The position numbers and the translations under genes are program-made. Positions 3,125-49,984 of a stretch of DNA of 62,265 nucleotides are shown one piece after another. The notes under the pieces were generated by a model, which did not search any database, had not been told where the DNA came from, and was given only the letters and a program-made list of their open reading frames with translations. The first letter of the stretch is position 1. Each line of letters starts with the position of its first letter. Source of the DNA: Pirellulales bacterium (GTDB taxonomy: Bacteria; Planctomycetota; Planctomycetia; Pirellulales; UBA1268); contig JBIKND010000002.1 in NCBI GenBank assembly GCA_044358905.1, positions 1 through 62,265 on the forward strand. Reading direction: 5' to 3'.

Positions 3125-5152
3125 GTGATTCGCAAAGTTCTTTCTTGCCTCCTGCCGGCGTTCGCCGTCGTCGCCCTGTGCACCAGCACGTGGGCGAAGG
3201 ACTGCGGCTCCTGCGGTGGCGGTTGCGAGGGTGGCTGCGAAGGCGGTGCCGTCGTGGCCGGTGATGCCTGTGGTGGTTGTGAGGGTGCCGGCGCCGCGTG
3301 CGGCGGGACCAAGACGGTGTATCAGCGTCAGTACGTGACCGAGATGAAGACGGTCACGTCGACCGAGTACACCACCGAGACCCGCGAGCGGACCTACACG
3401 GTCAACAAGCGCGTCCCGCGGACCGAGACGAAGACCCGCACGGTCACCGTGCAGGTTCCCGAGACTCGGACCAAGACCGTGAACTACACGGTCAACAAGA
3501 ACGTGACGGAGACCAAGACGGCCGAGTACACCGTCCAGGTCCCCTACACCGAGTCGGTCGAGCAGACCTACACGGTGCACGTGCCGGTGAGCGAGGAGAA
3601 GACCTCGAACTACACCGTCATGGTCCCGAAGCAGGAAGAGAAGACCTCGACCTACACGGTCCAGGTCCCCTACACCGAGCAGGTCGAGCAGACCTACACG
3701 GTGATGACGAGCGTGCCGGAAGAGAAGACCTCGACCTACTCGGTCCAGGTCCCGTACACCGAGTCGGTCGAGCAGACCTACACGGTGAACGTTCCGGTTT
3801 CGGAAGAGAAGACCTCGACCTACACGGTCCAGGTCCCCTACACCGAGTCGGTCGAGCAGGCCTACACGGTGATGGTGCCGGTTTCGGAAGAGAAGACCGC
3901 CACCTACACGGTGATGGTCCCCTACACCGAGGAGAAGGTTTCGACCTACTCGGTGAACGTTCCCTACACCGAGCAGGTCGAGCAGACCTACACGGTGAAC
4001 GTGCCCTACACCGAGGAGATGACCGGCAGCCGGACCGTGCAGAAGCGCGTCCCGGTTCAGTCGTCGAAGACGGTGCAGGTCCGCGGTGGCCACTGGGCGA
4101 CGCAGCAGGTCGAGGTTCCCTCGGCCGGCACCGACGCCTGCGGCTGCCCCTGCCCCCCGAAGACGTGCTGCAAGCGTGTCTGGGTTCCGACGTGCGAAAC
4201 GAAGGAAGTCCCGGTCACGACCTACCAGTGCACGACTGAGGAGGTCCCCTACTCCTACACGGTCACCAAGTGCCGTCAGGAGCAGCGGAGCCGGATGGTG
4301 AACGTGACGAAGAACCGCACCGAGGAGCGCACCCGGACCTACACGGTCTCGAAGTGCCGCCCCGAGGAGCGGACTCGCACCTACACCGTCACCAAGATGG
4401 TGCCGGAGCAGAAGACCCGTTCGGTGAACGTCACCAAGTACCGCTCGGAAGAGCGGACTCGGAACTACACCGTGACCAAGATGGTTCCGGAGACGAAGAC
4501 CCGCTCGGTCAACGTCACCAAGTACCGCTCCGAGGAGCGGACCCGGACCTACACGGTCACCAAGTGCGTTCCGGAGACGAAGACCCGCTCGGTCAGCGTC
4601 ACCAAGTATCGTCCGGAGGAGCGGACCCGCAGCTACACCGTCACCACCATGGTGCCGGAAGAGCGGACCCGCACCTACACCGTCACGAAGATGGTGCCGG
4701 AGCAGAAGACCCGCACGGTCAACGTGACCAAGTACAAGACCGAGTCGAAGACTCGGGAGTACACGGTCACCAAGTGCGTGCCGGAGACCATGACGAAGGA
4801 AGTTTCCTACACCGTCATGGTTCCCCAGCAGAAGGAAGAGTCGTACACCGTGACGGTGTATGACTGCGTGCCGGAGACGAAGACCGAGAGCTACTCGGTT
4901 CGCGTCCCCCACACGGTCACCAAGGAGGTGCCGGTGCAGAAGTGCGTCACGGTCGCCGTCGAGGTGCCCGTTGAAGGCGGCTGCGGCGGTGCGGCTGGTG
5001 GCTGTGGTGACGCCGGTGCGGCTGGTGCCTGCGGCGACGCCGGTGCCTGCGGCGATGCCGGTGCGGCCGGTGCCTGCGGCGCTGCCGCTGGCGACTGTGG
5101 CGGCAAGGCCAAGGGCTGCCGTCGCAAGGGCTGCCGTCGCTGCGGCTGCTGA
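3125..5152 (+). CDS. YTV-repeat, cysteine-rich secreted protein (planctomycete cell-envelope-type protein)
   Basis: GTG at 3125 lies 6 nt after GGAGG (3115-3119) and opens a signal peptide (VIRKVLSCLLPAFAVVALCTSTWA). There are dozens of x-YTV-x-VP / YTVTK units. Cys/Gly-rich N-terminus (CGSCGGGCEGGCEGG), central Cys cluster (CGCPCPPKTCCK) and Cys/Gly C-terminus (GACGDAGACGDAG...CRRKGCRRCGC). Matches the YTV repeat family described from Rhodopirellula. Confidence 0.85.
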   Translation: MIRKVLSCLLPAFAVVALCTSTWAKDCGSCGGGCEGGCEGGAVVAGDACGGCEGAGAACGGTKTVYQRQYVTEMKTVTSTEYTTETRERTYTVNKRVPRTETKTRTVTVQVPETRTKTVNYTVNKNVTETKTAEYTVQVPYTESVEQTYTVHVPVSEEKTSNYTVMVPKQEEKTSTYTVQVPYTEQVEQTYTVMTSVPEEKTSTYSVQVPYTESVEQTYTVNVPVSEEKTSTYTVQVPYTESVEQAYTVMVPVSEEKTATYTVMVPYTEEKVSTYSVNVPYTEQVEQTYTVNVPYTEEMTGSRTVQKRVPVQSSKTVQVRGGHWATQQVEVPSAGTDACGCPCPPKTCCKRVWVPTCETKEVPVTTYQCTTEEVPYSYTVTKCRQEQRSRMVNVTKNRTEERTRTYTVSKCRPEERTRTYTVTKMVPEQKTRSVNVTKYRSEERTRNYTVTKMVPETKTRSVNVTKYRSEERTRTYTVTKCVPETKTRSVSVTKYRPEERTRSYTVTTMVPEERTRTYTVTKMVPEQKTRTVNVTKYKTESKTREYTVTKCVPETMTKEVSYTVMVPQQKEESYTVTVYDCVPETKTESYSVRVPHTVTKEVPVQKCVTVAVEVPVEGGCGGAAGGCGDAGAAGACGDAGACGDAGAAGACGAAAGDCGGKAKGCRRKGCRRCGC

Positions 5153-5299: not shown

Positions 5300-6403
5300 A
5301 TGCCGGCACTGAGCAAATCGAGCCCCCGTCCGGCAACACCGGAGCCGTGTTCCGGGAGCTCCGCTGCGGAGGGTTCCGCCTGGATCAGTCAGGCGCGGCA
5401 GGTCATCCGAGACGCCGATCGCGATTTCTTTCGCGTCTCACCGGCCCGCTACTGGATCGACTTCCTGGTCAGTCTGACGGCGGCGTATCTGGCGGCCGGT
5501 GTTTACCTCACCTCCCCGCTCTGGTCGTGGCGACAGGCCGTCGCCTTCCCGATCGCGGCGTTCTGGCTCTACAGGCTGGGCTCGTTGATCCATGAGGTCT
5601 GCCACCTCGGCGGTCACGAGTTGCCCCTCTTCAAGGCAGCCTGGAACGCCCTGGCGGGCGTGATGCTGCTGACGCCGAGCCCGTTCTTCACCCGGCACCA
5701 CCGCGACCACCACAGTCAGCGGTACTACGGCACGCCGGAGGATCCCGAGTACGTCGCCAACGTGCTCGAGGGGGGCAACCCGCGGAGCATGATCGGCTAC
5801 GTCGTCTACGTGCTGGCGTTTCCGCTGCTCGTGTTCCTGCGGTTCCTGCTGGCGCCGCTCACCTTCCTTCATCCGCAGCTCCGGGAATGGACGCTGCGCA
5901 AGGCCTCGTCACTGACTTTCAATCGGCAGTATGACCGGCGGCTGACAGCGGCCGATCGCCGGGCCATTCTGGCCGTGGAAATTCCCTGTTTCTTGCGGGC
6001 TGCCGTGATTCCCACGCTCGTACTCCTGGGGCTGAACCACTGGTCACGGATTCCGCTGCTCTATGCCTTGGCCGTGGCCACCGTCGTGCTCAATCAGCTC
6101 CGGCAGCTGGCCGACCATCATTTCGAGGGTGACGGCAGCCGGGTGGATCTCGAATCGCACATCGTCGATTCCTGCAACTTCACGCGGAACGACCCGCTCA
6201 CGCTGCTCTTCTTTCCGTTCTCCATCCGCTACCACGCCCTGCATCACCTGTTTCCGTCGATGCCCTACCACAACCTCAAGCCGGCGCACGAGCACCTCGT
6301 GGCCACGCTGCCGGCCGGCTCGCCCTATCACGAGCTCGACCGGCCGGGCTGGTGGAGCGTGGCCAAGGTGACGATGTTCGGCAGCCGTGCGACCGTCGGC
6401 TAA
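5300..6403 (+). CDS. Membrane fatty-acid desaturase family protein
   Basis: Three histidine boxes in the canonical order, HEVCH, HHRDHH and HALHH, with hydrophobic segments between them. Confidence 0.85.
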   Translation: MPALSKSSPRPATPEPCSGSSAAEGSAWISQARQVIRDADRDFFRVSPARYWIDFLVSLTAAYLAAGVYLTSPLWSWRQAVAFPIAAFWLYRLGSLIHEVCHLGGHELPLFKAAWNALAGVMLLTPSPFFTRHHRDHHSQRYYGTPEDPEYVANVLEGGNPRSMIGYVVYVLAFPLLVFLRFLLAPLTFLHPQLREWTLRKASSLTFNRQYDRRLTAADRRAILAVEIPCFLRAAVIPTLVLLGLNHWSRIPLLYALAVATVVLNQLRQLADHHFEGDGSRVDLESHIVDSCNFTRNDPLTLLFFPFSIRYHALHHLFPSMPYHNLKPAHEHLVATLPAGSPYHELDRPGWWSVAKVTMFGSRATVG

Positions 6404-6562
6404 ACCGCATCCCGTTGTGCCGTAGCCACGAGTTGGCAGATTGCGTGAGGCAGGCGAGGGGGTCGGCGAACGCTCGACGAGCGTGTGGCCGCTGCGGCCA
6501 CAGCGAGGAGACTTTTGCCGCCCCCGCGCCGGAGGTGCACCAAAGTCGACTGCGCTCTAACG
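6401..6562 (-). repeat. Intergenic structured repeat, family 1, copy a (MITE/REP-like, about 160 bp)
   Basis: Nearly identical over about 120 nt to 39689-39808, and homologous along its whole length to 39648-39808 and 31432-31614. It fills the entire gap between the convergent desaturase and mscL genes. Its first three bases are the desaturase TAA. Its CTA at 6557-6559 is the mscL stop codon. Confidence 0.8.
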
Positions 6563-8161: not shown

Positions 8162-10606
8162 ATGCGCGCTTTGGCCGCGACCGCTTGCCTCGTATTCGCT
8201 TTCGTGCTGGCCGCCGACGCCCACGGCCGCCCGTCCATGGGTCGCGCCGGCGGCGGCGGTGCTGGCCATCACGGAGTGGCCCACGGGGGGGCGGCGCCGC
8301 ATGCCCGTCCGCAGATGCCCCAGGCCAGGCCAGCGATGCCGCAGGCCAGGCCGGCAATGCCACAGGCCCGCCCTTCCATGCCGCAGGGCCGGCCGTCCAT
8401 GCCGCAGGCACGCCCGGCGATGCCCCAGGGACGGCCGAATGTCGGTGGCATGCAGCCGCCGCAGGTGCCGCATTTTCAACGGCCGAGTGTCGGTGCCATT
8501 CAGAGCCCGAACCTTGCACGGCCGTCGTTTCCGAACGCGGGTGCCGTTACCCGGCCCGCAGCGCCGCCGCCGACCGCGCGGCCGGGACTGGGATCCACGC
8601 GACCCGCACCAGGCGGTGCGGCAGGCGGAATCGCCCGCCCGCCGTTCGGTGCCGGTCCTGGCCAGGCAAGCATTCCCGGCGGCGGTTTCGCCACGCGTCC
8701 CACGCCTGGCTTTCGGCCCGGGGGCGGGCAGGCGGGGGCCGGCGGTCTGCCGAACGTCGGCGGAAATCGTCCTGGGCTCGGCACGCTTCCGGGAACCCCG
8801 GGGGGCATGCCGGGCTTGAACACGCGGCCGGTGCCAGGGATGCGGCCCGGACTTGGCGCCGCCACGAAGCCGTTTCCGGCGCCCGGCAGCGGCGGTGGCC
8901 TGAACGGCGGAAATCGTCCTGGGCTCGACGGAAATCGACCCGGTCAGGGTGGCGGCGGCCTGGCGGGCGGAAACCGGCCCACCACACTCCCGGGCACGAT
9001 CGGCGGCGGCGATCGGCCGAATCTCGGCGGCAATCGGCCGGGCGTCGGCGGTACTCGGCCGACGCCTTTGCCGGGTGACCTGGGTGCAGGGAACCGTCCG
9101 GGCGTCGGTGGCAACCGTCCGGGGCTCGGCAATCGGCCCGACGGCATCGGCAACCGGCCGGGTATCGGTGGCAATCGTCCCGGCATCGGCGGCAATCGGC
9201 CGACAACGCTGCCCGGCGATCTCGGCGGCCTGACGGGCGGCAATCGTCCGGATGGCGGCTGGAACAGGCCAAACGGCGGCTGGAATCGGCCCGGTATCGG
9301 CGGCAATCGCCCCGGCTGGAACCGTCCCGGCATCGGCGACAACAACAACTTCTGGAACAGCGGCAACATCAACATCAACAACGGCATCAATACCGGCTGG
9401 GGTGGGGGCTGGAACGGGGGCGGTTGGAACGGAGGCGGCTGGAACGGCGGTGCCTGGGGCTATCCGGGCTGGGGGGGCGGCTACGGTTTGAACCAGGGCT
9501 ATGTGAATCCGCACTACGGCAGTTGGTACAACGGCGGCTGGAACAATGGCTGGGGTGGATTCTGGGGCGGCTTCGCCACCGGCGCGGCGACCTGGGGCCT
9601 GGCGTCCGCACTCACGAACTGGGGGCTCGGCTACGGCTCGCTCGGCTACGCCGGCGGGGCTTACGTGAATCCGTATTACTCGGCCGTCCCGGCCACCGTC
9701 GTGGCCGCGTCGCCCTACGACTATTCCCAGCCGATCGTCGTCAACAACTACATCCCGGTCGACGGCGGCTCGACGGCGGGCGTGGCCACGGAGTCCGCTG
9801 CGCCGCCGTCGGCGCCCAGCGACGCTACGGTCGACGCCGCGCTCGAGAAGTTCAAGGCCGGTGACTACGCCGGCGCCTTGGCCGGCTTTGACGCGGCCCT
9901 CAAGGCGTCGCCCAACGATTCGGTGATCCACGAGGTAAGGGCGCTCGCGCTGTTTGCGCTCGGCCGCTACCCCGAGGCCGCCGCCACGCTGAATGCCGTG
10001 CTCGCCGCGGCGCCCGGCATGGACTGGACGACGGTCAGCAACCTGTATCCGTCCGTCGACGTCTATACGGCGCAGCTTCGCAAGCTCGAGGACTTCTGCC
10101 GCGCGAACCCCGGCGACGCGGCCGCCCACTTCGTGCTCGCCTATCAGTACCTCGTCGGCGGGCATTCCGACGCCGCGGCCTCGGCCCTCGAGGTCGTCGT
10201 CGCCAAGCAGCCGGGCGACATGGTGGCGAAGCGGCTTCTCGGGGCACTGAAGCCTACGGCCGAAGCCGCTCAGCCGGAGGCCGGGCAGGCGACGCAGGAG
10301 ACGGAGAAGCCCGCCGCCCCGGAGACCGACCTGGTCGGCACCTGGAAGGCCGGCAGCGGCACCGACGCGATCGTTCTCGAGATCACGGCGGATTCGAAGT
10401 TCAGCTGGAAGGCGGCGCCGGCCGGCAAGCCCGCGGTGGAACTGGCCGGGACGATCGAAACGGCCGCCGACGCGATCGCATTGCACAGCGAGAAGGCGGG
10501 CACGATGGCGGGCAAGGTGACCTCGAAGGGCCCCGACGCTTTCGAGTTTTCGCTGCCCGGGGCGCCGGCGGAAGCGAAGCCCCTGCTGTTTCAGCGGCAG
10601 CGATAG
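8162..10606 (+). CDS. Secreted multi-block low-complexity protein (MPQxRPx heptads, GNRPG repeats, GWNGG/aromatic-Gly block) with C-terminal TPR-like domain
   Basis: ATG at 8162 opens the signal peptide MRALAATACLVFAFVLAADAHG. Later blocks are described in the findings. TPR-like helices: FKAGDYAGALAGFDAALKASPND, ALALFALGRYPEAAATLNAVLAAAP, AHFVLAYQYLVGGHSDAAASALEVVVAKQP. Confidence 0.75.
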   Translation: MRALAATACLVFAFVLAADAHGRPSMGRAGGGGAGHHGVAHGGAAPHARPQMPQARPAMPQARPAMPQARPSMPQGRPSMPQARPAMPQGRPNVGGMQPPQVPHFQRPSVGAIQSPNLARPSFPNAGAVTRPAAPPPTARPGLGSTRPAPGGAAGGIARPPFGAGPGQASIPGGGFATRPTPGFRPGGGQAGAGGLPNVGGNRPGLGTLPGTPGGMPGLNTRPVPGMRPGLGAATKPFPAPGSGGGLNGGNRPGLDGNRPGQGGGGLAGGNRPTTLPGTIGGGDRPNLGGNRPGVGGTRPTPLPGDLGAGNRPGVGGNRPGLGNRPDGIGNRPGIGGNRPGIGGNRPTTLPGDLGGLTGGNRPDGGWNRPNGGWNRPGIGGNRPGWNRPGIGDNNNFWNSGNININNGINTGWGGGWNGGGWNGGGWNGGAWGYPGWGGGYGLNQGYVNPHYGSWYNGGWNNGWGGFWGGFATGAATWGLASALTNWGLGYGSLGYAGGAYVNPYYSAVPATVVAASPYDYSQPIVVNNYIPVDGGSTAGVATESAAPPSAPSDATVDAALEKFKAGDYAGALAGFDAALKASPNDSVIHEVRALALFALGRYPEAAATLNAVLAAAPGMDWTTVSNLYPSVDVYTAQLRKLEDFCRANPGDAAAHFVLAYQYLVGGHSDAAASALEVVVAKQPGDMVAKRLLGALKPTAEAAQPEAGQATQETEKPAAPETDLVGTWKAGSGTDAIVLEITADSKFSWKAAPAGKPAVELAGTIETAADAIALHSEKAGTMAGKVTSKGPDAFEFSLPGAPAEAKPLLFQRQR
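8315..8440 (+). repeat. Six tandem 21-bp repeats (in-frame, encoding MPQ[AG]RP[ASN] heptads)
   Basis: Read directly: atgccccaggccaggccagcg / atgccgcaggccaggccggca / atgccacaggcccgcccttcc / atgccgcagggccggccgtcc / atgccgcaggcacgcccggcg / atgccccagggacggccgaat. Confidence 0.9.
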
Positions 10607-10775
10607 GGCGGATTTGGGTTTCGCAGAGCTTGCGGGAAAGGCCCAATCCGGCTCGGAGACGGCATGAGTTGCGTCGCTGGCGAAGGTCCGCCACGCTCCG
10701 CATCCTCACGCCGATCCCCTCGCCTCCCCTGCCAGAGCTGCCAGTCCACTCTCTGCGTCCGTCGACCTCCCGGAC
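10604..10775 (+). repeat. Intergenic structured repeat, family 1 (subfamily 2), copy b
   Basis: The core ggcatgagttgcgtcgctggcgaaggtccgccacgctccgcatcctcacgccgatcccctcgcctcccc is about 95% identical to 35200-35270 and related to 23018-23108. The copy begins at the TAG stop (10604-10606) of the upstream gene. Confidence 0.75.
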
Positions 10776-21879: not shown

Positions 21880-22980
21880 GTGCCGCCGCCTGTGACCTGC
21901 AATCCATCCGATATCGCCCTGATGCGTCGGGCGCTCGATCTGGCCAGTCGCGGCGCTGGGCACGTGGAGCCCAATCCGCAGGTGGGGGCGGTCGTGGTCG
22001 CGCCCGACGGCGCGATCGTGGGCGAGGGATGGCATGCCGTCTACGGGGGGGCACACGCCGAAGTCGCGGCGCTCGCCGCCGCCGGTCCGGCCGCCCGCGG
22101 CGCAACACTCCATGTGACTCTCGAGCCGTGCTGTCATCATGGGAAGACTCCTCCCTGCACCGCGGCGATCATCGCAGCGGGCATCGCGCGCGTGGTCGTC
22201 GCGGCCGGTGATCCCTTCCCTGCCGTCGCCGGCCGCGGGATCGCCGCGCTGCGGGCGGCCGGCATCGCCGTCGAGACAGGCGCGCTCGAGGCCGAGGCGT
22301 GCCGCCTGATCGCGCCGTTTCGCAAGCTCGTCGAGACCGGCACGCCGTGGGTGATCGCCAAGTGGGCGATGAGCCTCGACGGCCGATTGGCGGCGGCGCC
22401 GGGTGCCGACCGCTGGATCAGTTCCCCCGAGTCGCGCGCCCTCGTTCACGCTCTCCGCGGACGGATCGACGCGATCGCCGTCGGCATCGGCACGGTGCTG
22501 GGAGACGACCCACTGCTCACCGCGCGGCCGCCGGGCCCACGGCAGCCGCTGCGGATCGTGCTCGACTCGACCGCGCGGCTGCCGCTGACGGCGGCCCTCG
22601 TCCGCACCGCCCGCGAGGTGCCGGTGCTGGTCGCGGCCGGTCCCGCGGCCGACGCCGCCCGCGTCGGGGCGCTGCGGGAGGCCGGCTGCGAGGTCTGGCA
22701 GGGAGCTGCCGAGGCGCCGATCGAACGGCTGCGGGAGTTGCTCGGCGAACTGGGCCGCCGTCGGATCACGAACCTCATGGTCGAAGGCGGGCCGGCCGTG
22801 CTCCGCACGCTCTTCGCTGCCGGCGCGGCGGATGAGATCCAGGCCTTCGTGGCGCCGCGGGTGATCGGCGGCGACCCCGCCGCGCTGCCCACGCTCCCCG
22901 ACGTGCCTGCCTGTGACGTCGAGGAGGTCGCCCTGCCCGGCGGCGACATCCTCCTCCGCGGCCTCGTGCGCCAGCGCTAG
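21880..22980 (+). CDS. ribD: Bifunctional riboflavin biosynthesis protein RibD (pyrimidine deaminase / uracil reductase)
   Basis: Deaminase zinc motifs HAEVAAL and TLEPCCHHGKTPPC. C-terminal RibD reductase domain (WVIAKWAMSLDGRLA, VEGGPAVL). Confidence 0.9.
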   Translation: MPPPVTCNPSDIALMRRALDLASRGAGHVEPNPQVGAVVVAPDGAIVGEGWHAVYGGAHAEVAALAAAGPAARGATLHVTLEPCCHHGKTPPCTAAIIAAGIARVVVAAGDPFPAVAGRGIAALRAAGIAVETGALEAEACRLIAPFRKLVETGTPWVIAKWAMSLDGRLAAAPGADRWISSPESRALVHALRGRIDAIAVGIGTVLGDDPLLTARPPGPRQPLRIVLDSTARLPLTAALVRTAREVPVLVAAGPAADAARVGALREAGCEVWQGAAEAPIERLRELLGELGRRRITNLMVEGGPAVLRTLFAAGAADEIQAFVAPRVIGGDPAALPTLPDVPACDVEEVALPGGDILLRGLVRQR

Positions 22981-23130
22981 AGCGCTTTCGACTTAGGTGT
23001 AGCACCGGCTCGGGGGCGCATGAGTTGCGTCGCTGGCGAAAGTCCGTGTCTTGGCCTTGCGTTCCTCGGCCAAGACAGTCCGCATCCTCACGCCGACCCC
23101 CTCGCCTGCAATCTCTGGTCGACTTCCCTA
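22978..23130 (+). repeat. Intergenic structured repeat, family 1 (subfamily 2), copy c
   Basis: Starts with the ribD TAG (22978-22980). Left terminus TAGAGCGCTTTCGACTTAGGTGTAGCACCGGCTCGGGGGCG. Right part CGCCGACCCCCTCGCCTGC is shared, reverse-complemented, with copies a/d/f. Ends at CTA 23128-23130, the stop of the minus-strand gene. Confidence 0.8.
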
Positions 23131-31431: not shown

Positions 31432-31614
31432 CAGAGCGTATCTCGTTTTGTTGTTGTGACGAGGTAGCAGTTTTCGTGAGGTAGGCGAGGGGGTCAGCGA
31501 ACGCTCGAGGAGCGTGGGGCGTATCCTCGCCCCAGCGAGAATCTGAAAGACCGCGAAGCGGCGACTTTTGCCGCCCCCGCGCCGGTGCTACACCAACGTC
31601 GGCTGCGCTTTACC
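31432..31614 (-). repeat. Intergenic structured repeat, family 1, copy d
   Basis: Shares its left terminus (CAGAGCGTATCTCGTTTTGTTGT...), the GGTAGGCGAGGGGGTCAGCGAACGCTCGAGGAGCGT core, and its right terminus (TTTGCCGCCCCCGCGCCGGTGCTACACCAACGTCGGCTGCGCTTTACC) with copies a and f. The right end contains the pheT stop TTA (31610-31612). Confidence 0.8.
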
Positions 31615-35073: not shown

Positions 35074-35184
35074 GGGCGGAAACCTTCCGGACGGTCAGGG
35101 GGATGGGTGAGCAAATTTCCCTTGAATCTGGCGAAATGCAAGGGGTGTCGATGTTTCCCACGGCATGAGCGAGATGAGCGAGCC

Positions 35185-35275
35185 CAAACCGGCCGGGGAC
35201 GGCATGAGTTGCGTCGCCGGCGAAGGTCCGCCAGGCTCCGCATCCTCACGCCGATCCCCTTGCCTCCCCCGCTCC
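35185..35275 (+). repeat. Intergenic structured repeat, family 1 (subfamily 2), copy e (core only), inside the rpmI-rplT spacer
   Basis: ggcatgagttgcgtcgccggcgaaggtccgccaggctccgcatcctcacgccgatccccttgcctcccc is about 95% identical to copy b (10661-10730). Confidence 0.75.
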
Positions 35276-39647: not shown

Positions 39648-39808
39648 TAGAGCGCATCTCGTTTTGCTGTAGCGAAGGGTTGGTAGTTTGCGCGAGGTAG
39701 GTGAGGGGGTCGGCGAACGCTCGACGAGCGTGTGGCCGCTGCGGCCACAGCGAGGAGACTTTTGCCGCCCCCGAGCCGGTGCTACACCAAAGTCGGATTC
39801 GGGCTAAC
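39648..39808 (-). repeat. Intergenic structured repeat, family 1, copy f (full length, with terminal inverted repeats)
   Basis: Left terminus TAGAGCGCATCTCGTTTTGCTGTAGC. The right terminus, reverse-complemented, is GTTAGCCCGAATCCGACTTTGGTGTAGC. The core is almost identical to copy a. The CTA at 39804-39806 is the stop of the minus-strand PPIase gene. Confidence 0.85.
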
Positions 39809-44561: not shown

Positions 44562-44711
44562 GAGAAGCCCCGGGCGGAAGCCCGGGGACACCGGGTGAGA
44601 AGACCTTCCCGTGGTCCATGGGGGAAGGGTGTCGGCCCAAGCCCGGGTCGGGCTCGTGTCGGCTTGCAACCGGGGAGATGCGTCCCCCGGCTTCCGCCCG
44701 GGGGCTTCTTG
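44562..44711. repeat. GC-rich palindromic-unit pair, family 2, copy 1 (inverted units flanking about 75 nt)
   Basis: Left unit GAGAAGCCCCGGGCGGAAGCCCGGGGACACCGG (44562-44594). Right unit CCGGGGAGATGCGTCCCCCGGCTTCCGCCCGGGGGCTTCTTG (44670-44711). Each unit is itself a hairpin (CCCCGGGC-GGAA-GCCCGGGG), and the two units are mutually reverse-complementary. Confidence 0.8.
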
Positions 44712-49768: not shown

Positions 49769-49844
49769 GCCCTGTAGCGGCGGTCTCTGACCGTCGTGGT
49801 CTGGCCGGCCCGTGGGGGCATGGGAGGCTCGGTGGCGTGCTTGC

Positions 49845-49955
49845 CCGGAGTCCCCGGGCTTCCGCCCGGGGCTTTTTGTGCTCGAGAGTGGCCTGCCACC
49901 GTTCGCTCCGGTCCCGGTTCCAAGAAGCCCCGGGCGGGAGCCCGGGGACTCCGGG
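49845..49955. repeat. GC-rich palindromic-unit pair, family 2, copy 2
   Basis: CCCGGAGTCCCCGGGCTTCCGCCCGGGGCTTTTTGTGCTCGAG (49845-49887) and CAAGAAGCCCCGGGCGGGAGCCCGGGGACTCCGGG (49921-49955). These are the same units as at 44562-44711 but in the opposite relative order. Confidence 0.8.
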
Positions 49956-49984
49956 TATGAATGCCTTTCCGTCGCAGCGTTGAC

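Follow-up and report, generated by a model that had tools for sequence, protein, structure and literature searches.

We analyzed the intergenic repeats in a stretch of 62,265 nt (the window, contig C46) from a Pirellulales bacterium, known as a metagenome-assembled genome (MAG) of 3.77 Mb in 298 contigs with 70% G+C and designated G000 below. Six gaps between genes of the window contain copies, a to f, of one repeat family. Six related copies had been listed in an original prediction made from the DNA letters alone; all of them were found in place, the boxes they share had been described correctly, and so had the reversed orientation of b, c and e. Pfam confirmed the flanking genes that the prediction had named (desaturase, MscL, RibD, PheT and PPIase), and it placed a sigma-70 factor, L35, a TPR protein and an S8 peptidase among the other neighbors. 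The copies are as follows.

Copy a, 6401-6559, plus strand: two-armed, the A-type core (about 6453-6533) lying between a left arm (6401-6452) and a right arm (6538-6559); the desaturase gene stops on the terminal TAA of the copy, and mscL on its terminal CTA (a minus-strand TAG)
Copy b, 10641-10729, minus strand: bare B-type core, GGnA-GGCGAGGGGATCGGCG...GAGCCGG-ATTGGGC, separated by 34 nt from the TAG that ends the upstream TPR gene
Copy c, 22978-23110, minus strand: B-type core with an extra hairpin cassette and a right arm only (22978-23004), whose terminal TAG is the stop of ribD
Copy d, 31432-31612, plus strand: two-armed, A-type core with two extra hairpin cassettes; the left terminus is decayed (CA for TA), and the terminal TTA on the right serves pheT as its TAA stop
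Copy e, 35183-35270, minus strand: bare B-type core between rpmI (L35) and the next minus-strand gene
Copy f, 39648-39806, plus strand: two-armed, the A-type core (about 39700-39780) lying between a left arm (39648-39699) and a right arm (39780-39806); the terminal CTA on the right serves the PPIase gene as its TAG stop, and the left terminus follows the sigma-factor gene's TGA by 13 nt

Copies a and f share 87% of their positions over 173 nt, and for b and e the figure is 94% over 79 nt. We consider it likely that the repeat is a composite, non-coding mobile element of freshwater Pirellulales, present in about 100 copies, in which the arms of an IS630-type MITE (a miniature transposable element with inverted repeats) enclose a hairpin core.

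Genome-Wide Census of the Repeat

A search of G000 with nhmmer, using a profile built from the six window copies, revealed about 100 loci on about 70 contigs. The census of cores was confined to copies with cassette signatures, loose anchor matching being unspecific in this GC-rich genome. Genes were called with a purpose-written codon-usage caller, which gave 2962 genes and a coding fraction of 87%. None of the roughly 100 copies lay within a called gene, so the intergenic position noted earlier for the window holds for the whole genome. In the alignment of all copies their flanks were unrelated to one another.

Two Nested Layers: Arms and Core

Alignment on the GGCGAGGGGGTCGGCG box revealed two nested layers in place of the single element type that had been proposed originally. 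The core is found in every copy, and outer arms (52 + 27 nt) are found in about a third of them. The left arm starts with (C)TAGAGCGCATCTCG... and the right arm ends with ...GCGCTCTA(G/A), so that the armed copies have the overall termini (C)TA-GAGCGC...GCGCTC-TA(G/A); TGTAGC occurs inside the arms. Copies of the MITE are 159-181 bp long and share no open reading frame (ORF). Both the small size and the lack of coding capacity are typical of MITEs derived from the IS630 family.

The arms were assigned with hidden Markov models (HMMs) trained on 16 copies from outside the window. Within the window, the left arm model matched only copies a (6403-6452), d (31433-31483) and f (39648-39699), and the right arm model matched copies a (6538-6559), c (22978-23004), d (31586-31609) and f (39780-39801). 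Neither model matched at b or e, which are thus bare cores; the idea that b is a decayed two-armed copy was rejected on the same ground.

The core is about 80-90 nt long, starts with GGnA-GGCGAGGGG(G/A)TCGGCG and closes with TGCCG(C/T)CCCCGAGCCGG. Its inner part is one of two cassettes, AACGCTCGACGAGCGT-hairpin-AGCGAGGAGACTTTT in type A or TGAGGATGCGGAGCGT-hairpin-AGCGACGCAACTCAT in type B. Variants of the core include optional extra hairpins, mini forms and one copy without any cassette.

A Candidate IS630-Family Partner of the Arms

The original prediction had pointed to a cognate transposase as something to look for, and an IS630-family candidate with matching ends was indeed found in G000. 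A search with the Pfam model DDE_3 led to C61:3602-4021, inside an insertion sequence (IS) of 1015 bp located at C61:3115-4129 and flanked by TA. Its ORF of 316 aa matches DDE_3 (E 3.9e-31, 108 bits) and HTH_Tnp_IS630 (25 bits), both above the cut-offs, and additionally HTH_23. The left end of the IS reads ggc-TA-GAGCGCGTCTGAC..., or in greater detail ggc-TA-GAGCGCGTCTGACATAGG..., and the right end reads ...CCGGACGCGCTC-TA-ggc. The ends of the IS and the arms of the MITE are identical at 18-21 of 30 positions, including the first 8 nt (TAGAGCGC); the two IS ends share 22 of 30 positions with each other, as do the two MITE arms.

In nine other species the examined IS copies had the same ends, mostly with TA on both sides, and differed in their outer flanks. 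The IS630-family transposase was detected in 14 of 68 genomes of the genus (G000 and 13 of its 67 congeners). The core is absent from the IS, and one of 20 IS loci from the relatives had an adjoining MITE. No empty site was obtained for the C61 IS, the intergenic DNA of the relatives being too diverged or filled by other repeats. From the similarity of the ends it can be suggested that the armed copies are mobilized in trans by a DDE transposase of the C61 type, which would recognize the arms as it does the ends of its own IS.

It should be mentioned that the transposase is mostly split into two overlapping frames near residue 115-118 (loci L089-L096, L102 and L103, from relatives and G000:C199). 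The split may be a programmed frameshift or decay; the copy on C61 has a single frame of 316 aa. In addition, an orphan, decayed right arm of the MITE (CTCAAGCGAGATCGACTCTGGTGTAGCACCGGC) directly abuts the C61 IS at C61:3083-3114 (locus L088). The IS was inserted into or beside an older MITE copy.

Target Site and Empty Sites

The closest relatives of G000 are the congeners G048 and G061 (85-91% identity in genes), followed by G015 and G042. The sites of four window copies were found empty in some of these genomes.

Site a: empty in G015 and G042, where TGA, a spacer of 12-15 nt and TCA are found
Site c: empty in G048, G061, G015 and G042; all four have the 755-aa gene's TAG where G000 has it; ribD of G048 and G061 runs 7 codons further to a TGA, the G000 gene being shorter by 7 codons
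Site d: empty in G015 and G042; pheT has a TAG at the same codon position
Site f: empty in G048 and G015; in G048 the PPIase gene has its TAG at the corresponding position

At the empty f and d sites of the relatives there is a single TA, inside the TAG stop. The reverse case was also found, a copy in G061:C12 being matched by the empty site GGC-TA-CGCGG in G000:C258. In G000 most termini have TA first, with C mostly preceding it and G or A outward. Other MAGs (80 loci, at least 15 MAGs) contributed 42 termini, of which 26 retain the TA; in 19 of these 26 the preceding base is C. TA is present at both ends of most two-armed copies and of most IS copies examined in other species, as expected if it is duplicated on insertion. 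Some termini read TC, GA or CA, and clean empty sites are few. The target of the element reads C-TA-G/A, similar to the reported preference of IS630 itself for CTAG. The element would thus insert at a TA dinucleotide, preferably within C-TA-G/A, and duplicate the TA, like other IS630/Tc1-mariner elements.

The earlier proposal of a MITE with a TA or TAR target, of the IS630/mariner type, is therefore supported for the armed copies by the IS ends, the C-TA...TA-G/A flanks and the empty sites.

At the f site two relatives contain 1.5-2 kb of extra DNA with a gene of about 636 aa (loci L125, G061:C86:10650-12750, and L126, G042:C202:10100-11700). As candidates for the IS these insertions were rejected: they are ordinary genes, and they are not the repeat either.

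Termini on Stop Codons

Of the 56 recognizable arm termini in G000, 16 coincide exactly with the stop codon of the incoming gene, far more than chance would give. When only the 27 termini with an incoming gene end no more than 40 nt away are considered, the same 16 are at distance zero. Counted by element, 14 of 36 (39%) are located on a stop codon. Of the 42 termini from other MAGs, 11 form the stop of a long ORF with high G+C at third codon positions, and all 11 stops are TAG. Stop usage in the whole of G000 is 2177 TGA (78%), 464 TAG and 162 TAA codons.

If harmless TA sites are defined as those that are intergenic or within a stop codon, stop codons contribute 9% of such TA sites, 18% of YTAR and 23% of CTAG sites. 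The binomial probability of finding 14 of 36 elements on stops is about 4e-6 at an expectation of 10% and 7e-3 at 20%. Target preference accounts for roughly half of the excess; a CTAR/TA target and selection taken together account for most of it.

In a genome with 70% G+C, C-TA-G/A sites are rare, and TAG and TAA stops make up much of those that are harmless. Insertion into the TA of a stop rebuilds TAG for a gene entering from either side (TA followed by GAGCGC). Such insertions are harmless because the element starts with G on both strands, and TA + G gives TAG. Costing nothing, they would survive, while insertions near promoters would be lost and termini that serve as stops would be preserved; selection thus probably acts as a filter. 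Copies d and f fit insertion into a pre-existing TAG. In copy c the terminal TAG is a new, earlier stop for ribD.

Seven coincidences of element termini with stop codons had been claimed for the window. Five of them stand (both ends of a and the right ends of c, d and f) and two do not. The TAG at 10604-10606 is not an end of copy b, as the part homologous to the family (10641-10729) stops 34 nt away. The TAG of the 755-aa gene is not the terminus of c: it lies 21 nt outside the core and is ancestral, being kept in four element-free relatives, which also refutes the suggestion that this gene ends on a TAG internal to the element. The preference for gene ends is a property of the armed termini, some of which lie on stops, and is not shared by the bare cores.

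Structure of the Core

In an alignment of 48 copies drawn from several species the A and B cassettes match each other column by column. RNAalifold folded this alignment into one long irregular hairpin of 20 pairs, nine of them with changes on both sides. When the outer GGC/GCC stem is included, pairing extends to 95.8% of cells, and double changes are seen in 10 of the 23 pairs. The covariation score of the core is 0.298 against a shuffle mean of 0.109 (none of 500 shuffles reached 0.298), and slid partners gave no more than 0.078. Much of the covariation is a contrast of A versus B and therefore reflects few independent events. Nevertheless, the compensatory changes support a hairpin fold of the core, for which a covariation analysis had been proposed earlier.

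Moving inward, the core consists of the stem GGC/GCC, a tandem G.A motif, the stem GGGGG/CCCCC, a bulged T, the stem CGGCG/UGCCG with a G.U pair that is invariant in 48 of 48 copies, and the exchangeable inner cassettes. As read from the sequence, two symmetric GA/GA internal loops in a CGAG context flank the core stems. The strand shown folds 7-10 kcal/mol better than its complement. No match to Rfam 15 reached the gathering score anywhere in the window, and for copies f and b nothing relevant appeared at E values up to 10; the Rfam check envisaged earlier thus yielded no family.

Bare Cores and Their Origin

Most copies in G000, about 60, are cores on their own. The bare B-type cores are sharply and asymmetrically delimited, by GGnA on the 5' side and by GAGCCGG-nTTGGGC on the 3' side; comparison of flanks revealed neither inverted ends nor a visible target duplication. 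By type of gap, 36 bare cores are between tandem genes, six between convergent and 11 between divergent genes, which is close to the background of 1806, 407 and 451 gaps. For the armed copies the numbers are 18, 11 and three, with an enrichment of convergent gaps. Relative to tandem genes, same and opposite orientations are found in 23 and 13 cores (p = 0.13) and in nine and nine armed copies. The cores show no strong preference for either gene end.

At one orthologous site of G000 and G048 the core is about 95% conserved versus 65% for the flanking intergenic DNA, and a whole cassette of 21 nt differs. At another, the two species have different cassettes and different left arms. At two further sites G000 has kept just the final 15 nt or so, where the relatives have the whole core. 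The combination of swapped cassettes, remnants and a conserved core looks like turnover with gene conversion between copies, which neither proves nor excludes a function of the core. Comparison of orthologous intergenic sites of the relatives gave no clean empty site for a bare core. No gene family recurs beside the cores, where only small clusters of generic paralogues were seen. Candidate routes for the spread of bare cores are gene conversion between copies, a single-stranded DNA route or some other enzyme.

The core would be a separate layer, older than the arms. A stronger version is that the core, more than mere cargo, is an independent structured element of single-stranded DNA or RNA with two tandem G.A motifs and the invariant G.U. 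Selection would maintain it, its spread would need neither inverted ends nor a target duplication and would depend on some other mechanism or enzyme, and an IS630-type MITE would have captured it secondarily. We regard this version as possible but rather unlikely.

Alternatively, the core could be a functional structured RNA, such as a stabilizer in the 3' untranslated region, a processing site or a small RNA, with its fold kept by selection and the arms merely spreading it. The compensatory changes do preserve the fold in both cassette types; the invariant G.U pair would become C.A on the other strand, the better folding also belongs to the strand shown, and the orthologous core is far more conserved than its surroundings. 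However, the orientation relative to tandem genes is not significantly biased in the cores and is even in the armed copies, eleven cores are located in divergent promoter gaps, Rfam offers no match even at permissive E values, and orthologous sites with swapped cassettes or 15-nt remnants have the appearance of turnover with gene conversion. Nor is there a terminator signal. The terminator scan detected no terminator-like site within any core, and the count for the region was inside the shuffle range. An intrinsic terminator should have a GC-rich hairpin directly followed by a run of T and be oriented with the upstream gene; in type A cores TTTT is inside the stem, and type B cores have no TTTT. 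With gap proportions like those of the background and both orientations represented, the bare cores also give no support to the earlier suggestion of a terminator cassette tolerated only at gene 3' ends. A functional RNA is thus a quite improbable explanation of the core.

It is likewise doubtful that the bare core is a single-stranded DNA element resembling repetitive extragenic palindromes (REPs), REPINs or IS200/IS605, which an HUH tyrosine transposase would mobilize by recognizing the hairpin on one strand, without any need for the IS630 arms. Its sharp, asymmetric ends without inverted repeats or a visible target duplication would suit such an element, as would the invariant A and GG just 5' of the core and the strand-specific features of the hairpin (G.T, the bulged T, tandem G.A, and GNA triloops such as GCGAAGC). 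Cores also occur in tandem arrays, like bacterial interspersed mosaic elements (BIMEs): arrays of three B-type cores were seen at G000:C23:8319-8633 and G061:C187:10590-10880 (locus L123), with periods of 124 and 104 nt and with the spacers repeated too. On the other hand, REPs are palindromes of 20-40 nt with a GTAG or CGTC tag, and the core is a multi-branched hairpin of 80-90 nt starting with GGnA-GGCGAG. No gene family recurs next to it, and it lacks a clean empty site. The only gene similar to Y1_Tnp (C77:4332-4595; 22.9 bits, borderline) is flanked by a different palindromic repeat with units of the CCCGGGCTTCCGCCCGGGG type, so the REP-associated tyrosine transposase (RAYT) considered in the original prediction goes with another repeat family.

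Finally, a local segmental duplication, or chance likeness among GC-rich intergenic stretches, has in its favor only that the six copies lie within 34 kb, and it can practically be dismissed, as the similarity is not limited to the window: about 100 copies with unrelated flanks are dispersed over 70-odd contigs, and the congeners have hundreds more.

Distribution in Other Genomes

Of the 24 species sampled in the genus, 21 gave matches to copy f as a query, and the 16 genomes searched from other families gave none. The B core was found in two further genera of the same family and in none of 228 genomes from 29 other families of the order; the B-core counts are lower bounds, three candidates being scored per genome. 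An exact 25-mer of the A core is present in at least 92 stretches of MAGs from lakes and similar waters. Their hosts are labelled Pirellulales, Planctomycetaceae or Planctomycetia, with two labelled Ca. Kuenenia. It should be mentioned that the record CAZJHQ01 (locus L134 and others), labelled 'uncultured Candidatus Kuenenia sp.', corresponds to the congener G048, and its public label looks wrong.

Other Repeats of the Window and the Genus

The list of direct repeats in the window is dominated by a gene at 3317-5152 with many tandem repeats of 42 nt (14 aa) of the TYTV type. A second family of dispersed repeats, palindromes of the AAGCCCCGGGCGGAAGCCCGGGGAC type, is found in the window at 44565-44595 and 49834-49965 and flanks the Y1_Tnp-like gene on C77 (locus L087). 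The product of this gene is a small HUH protein with ITWSTYGSWLPGD and SSHVHVVV motifs, and together with the palindromes it looks like a classical REP-RAYT pair.

G000 also has an insertion of an unlike repeat, about 150 nt long, at C190:6375-6532 (L108); in G048 and G061 only 4-6 nt separate the orthologous junctions. Similar copies are found elsewhere in G061 and G048, and the case is a clean insertion of another small element. Two more palindromic families, GTGGACAAAGCC...GGCTTTGTCCAC and GCTGTAGCGGCGGTCTC...GAGACCGCCGCTACAGT, adjoin copies of the repeat (G000:C4:4375-4420, C197:25440-25480 and C37:1130-1160; C226:1303-1416). The intergenic DNA of the genus is thus a patchwork of several repeat families.

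Discussion

The repeat described here is a new example of a familiar kind of element, the IS630-type MITE. Its nearest precedent is RUP with IS630-Spn1 in Streptococcus pneumoniae, for which similar ends, a TA target and about 100 copies are described (Oggioni and Claverys, 1999, via PMC2229807 and PMC3049150). Both repeats are non-coding and intergenic, have inverted ends like those of an IS630-family element in the same genome, insert at TA and are proposed to be mobilized in trans. RUP is a simple unit of 107 bp; here the arms enclose a modular, covarying hairpin core that is also dispersed alone. PMC2229807 and PMC3049150 report no association of RUP with stop codons. The host is different as well, being a planctomycete with 70% G+C.

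The Correia (NEMIS) elements of Neisseria are also TA-flanked, gene-adjacent MITEs of about 100-160 bp with inverted ends and a long hairpin; there is no sequence similarity between them and the present repeat. Correia elements contain promoters as well as IHF sites and are cleaved by RNase III. We know of no cognate transposase for them.

The modular build recalls the boxA-B-C organization of the BOX elements of pneumococci. Stop codons are supplied by the termini of BOX, in which 36 genes end (PMC3049150), and GTAG REP termini often provide TAG (PMC3733652). In contrast to both, the stop would be produced here by duplication of the TA target together with the first base of the IS630-type end. 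With REPIN/RAYT systems and BIME mosaics the repeat shares high-copy hairpins that are limited to one genus or family, come in mosaic variants and tandem arrays, and evolve in concert; the association with a RAYT that defines those systems was not found for the core. We found no paper on this repeat family in Planctomycetes, and the candidate transposase partner, the separation of arms and core, and the genome-wide and cross-species statistics are new here.

Several observations weigh against an IS630-type MITE as the source of the armed copies. The link to the C61 transposase consists of end similarity at 18-21 of 30 positions, and this transposase was not detected in the closest relatives G048 and G061 although both are rich in copies; their copies mostly carry a different left arm. 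Several copies have TCGAGCGC at both ends instead of TA, which may result from hairpin-templated repair or from AT-to-GC drift. Most intergenic comparisons with relatives are too diverged for clean empty sites. The share of elements on stops, 39%, is still about twice the availability of CTAG or YTAR sites, and therefore selection or the preservation of stop-serving termini is needed for the remainder. In two elements, copy a and the copy at C282:16787, both termini lie on the stops of convergent genes. Simple TA insertion would then require that the two stops shared one TA (C-TA-A), and none of the 407 present convergent pairs in G000 overlap their stops in this way; at site a the more distant relatives have TGA and TCA separated by 12-15 nt. 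It is possible that such double-stop copies arose by later loss of the spacer, with the terminal TAG as a back-up stop.

For practical purposes, the copies should be masked in annotation as repeats and not presented as regulatory RNAs, and it should be taken into account that the family breaks many assemblies of freshwater Pirellulales MAGs. Of the parts of the element, only the bare core might open the way to something new. The armed copies provide a worked numerical example of how repeats come to lie exactly on stop codons when the target preference of a transposon combines with a GC-rich genome, and, as at ribD, such repeats can replace the stop of the gene itself.

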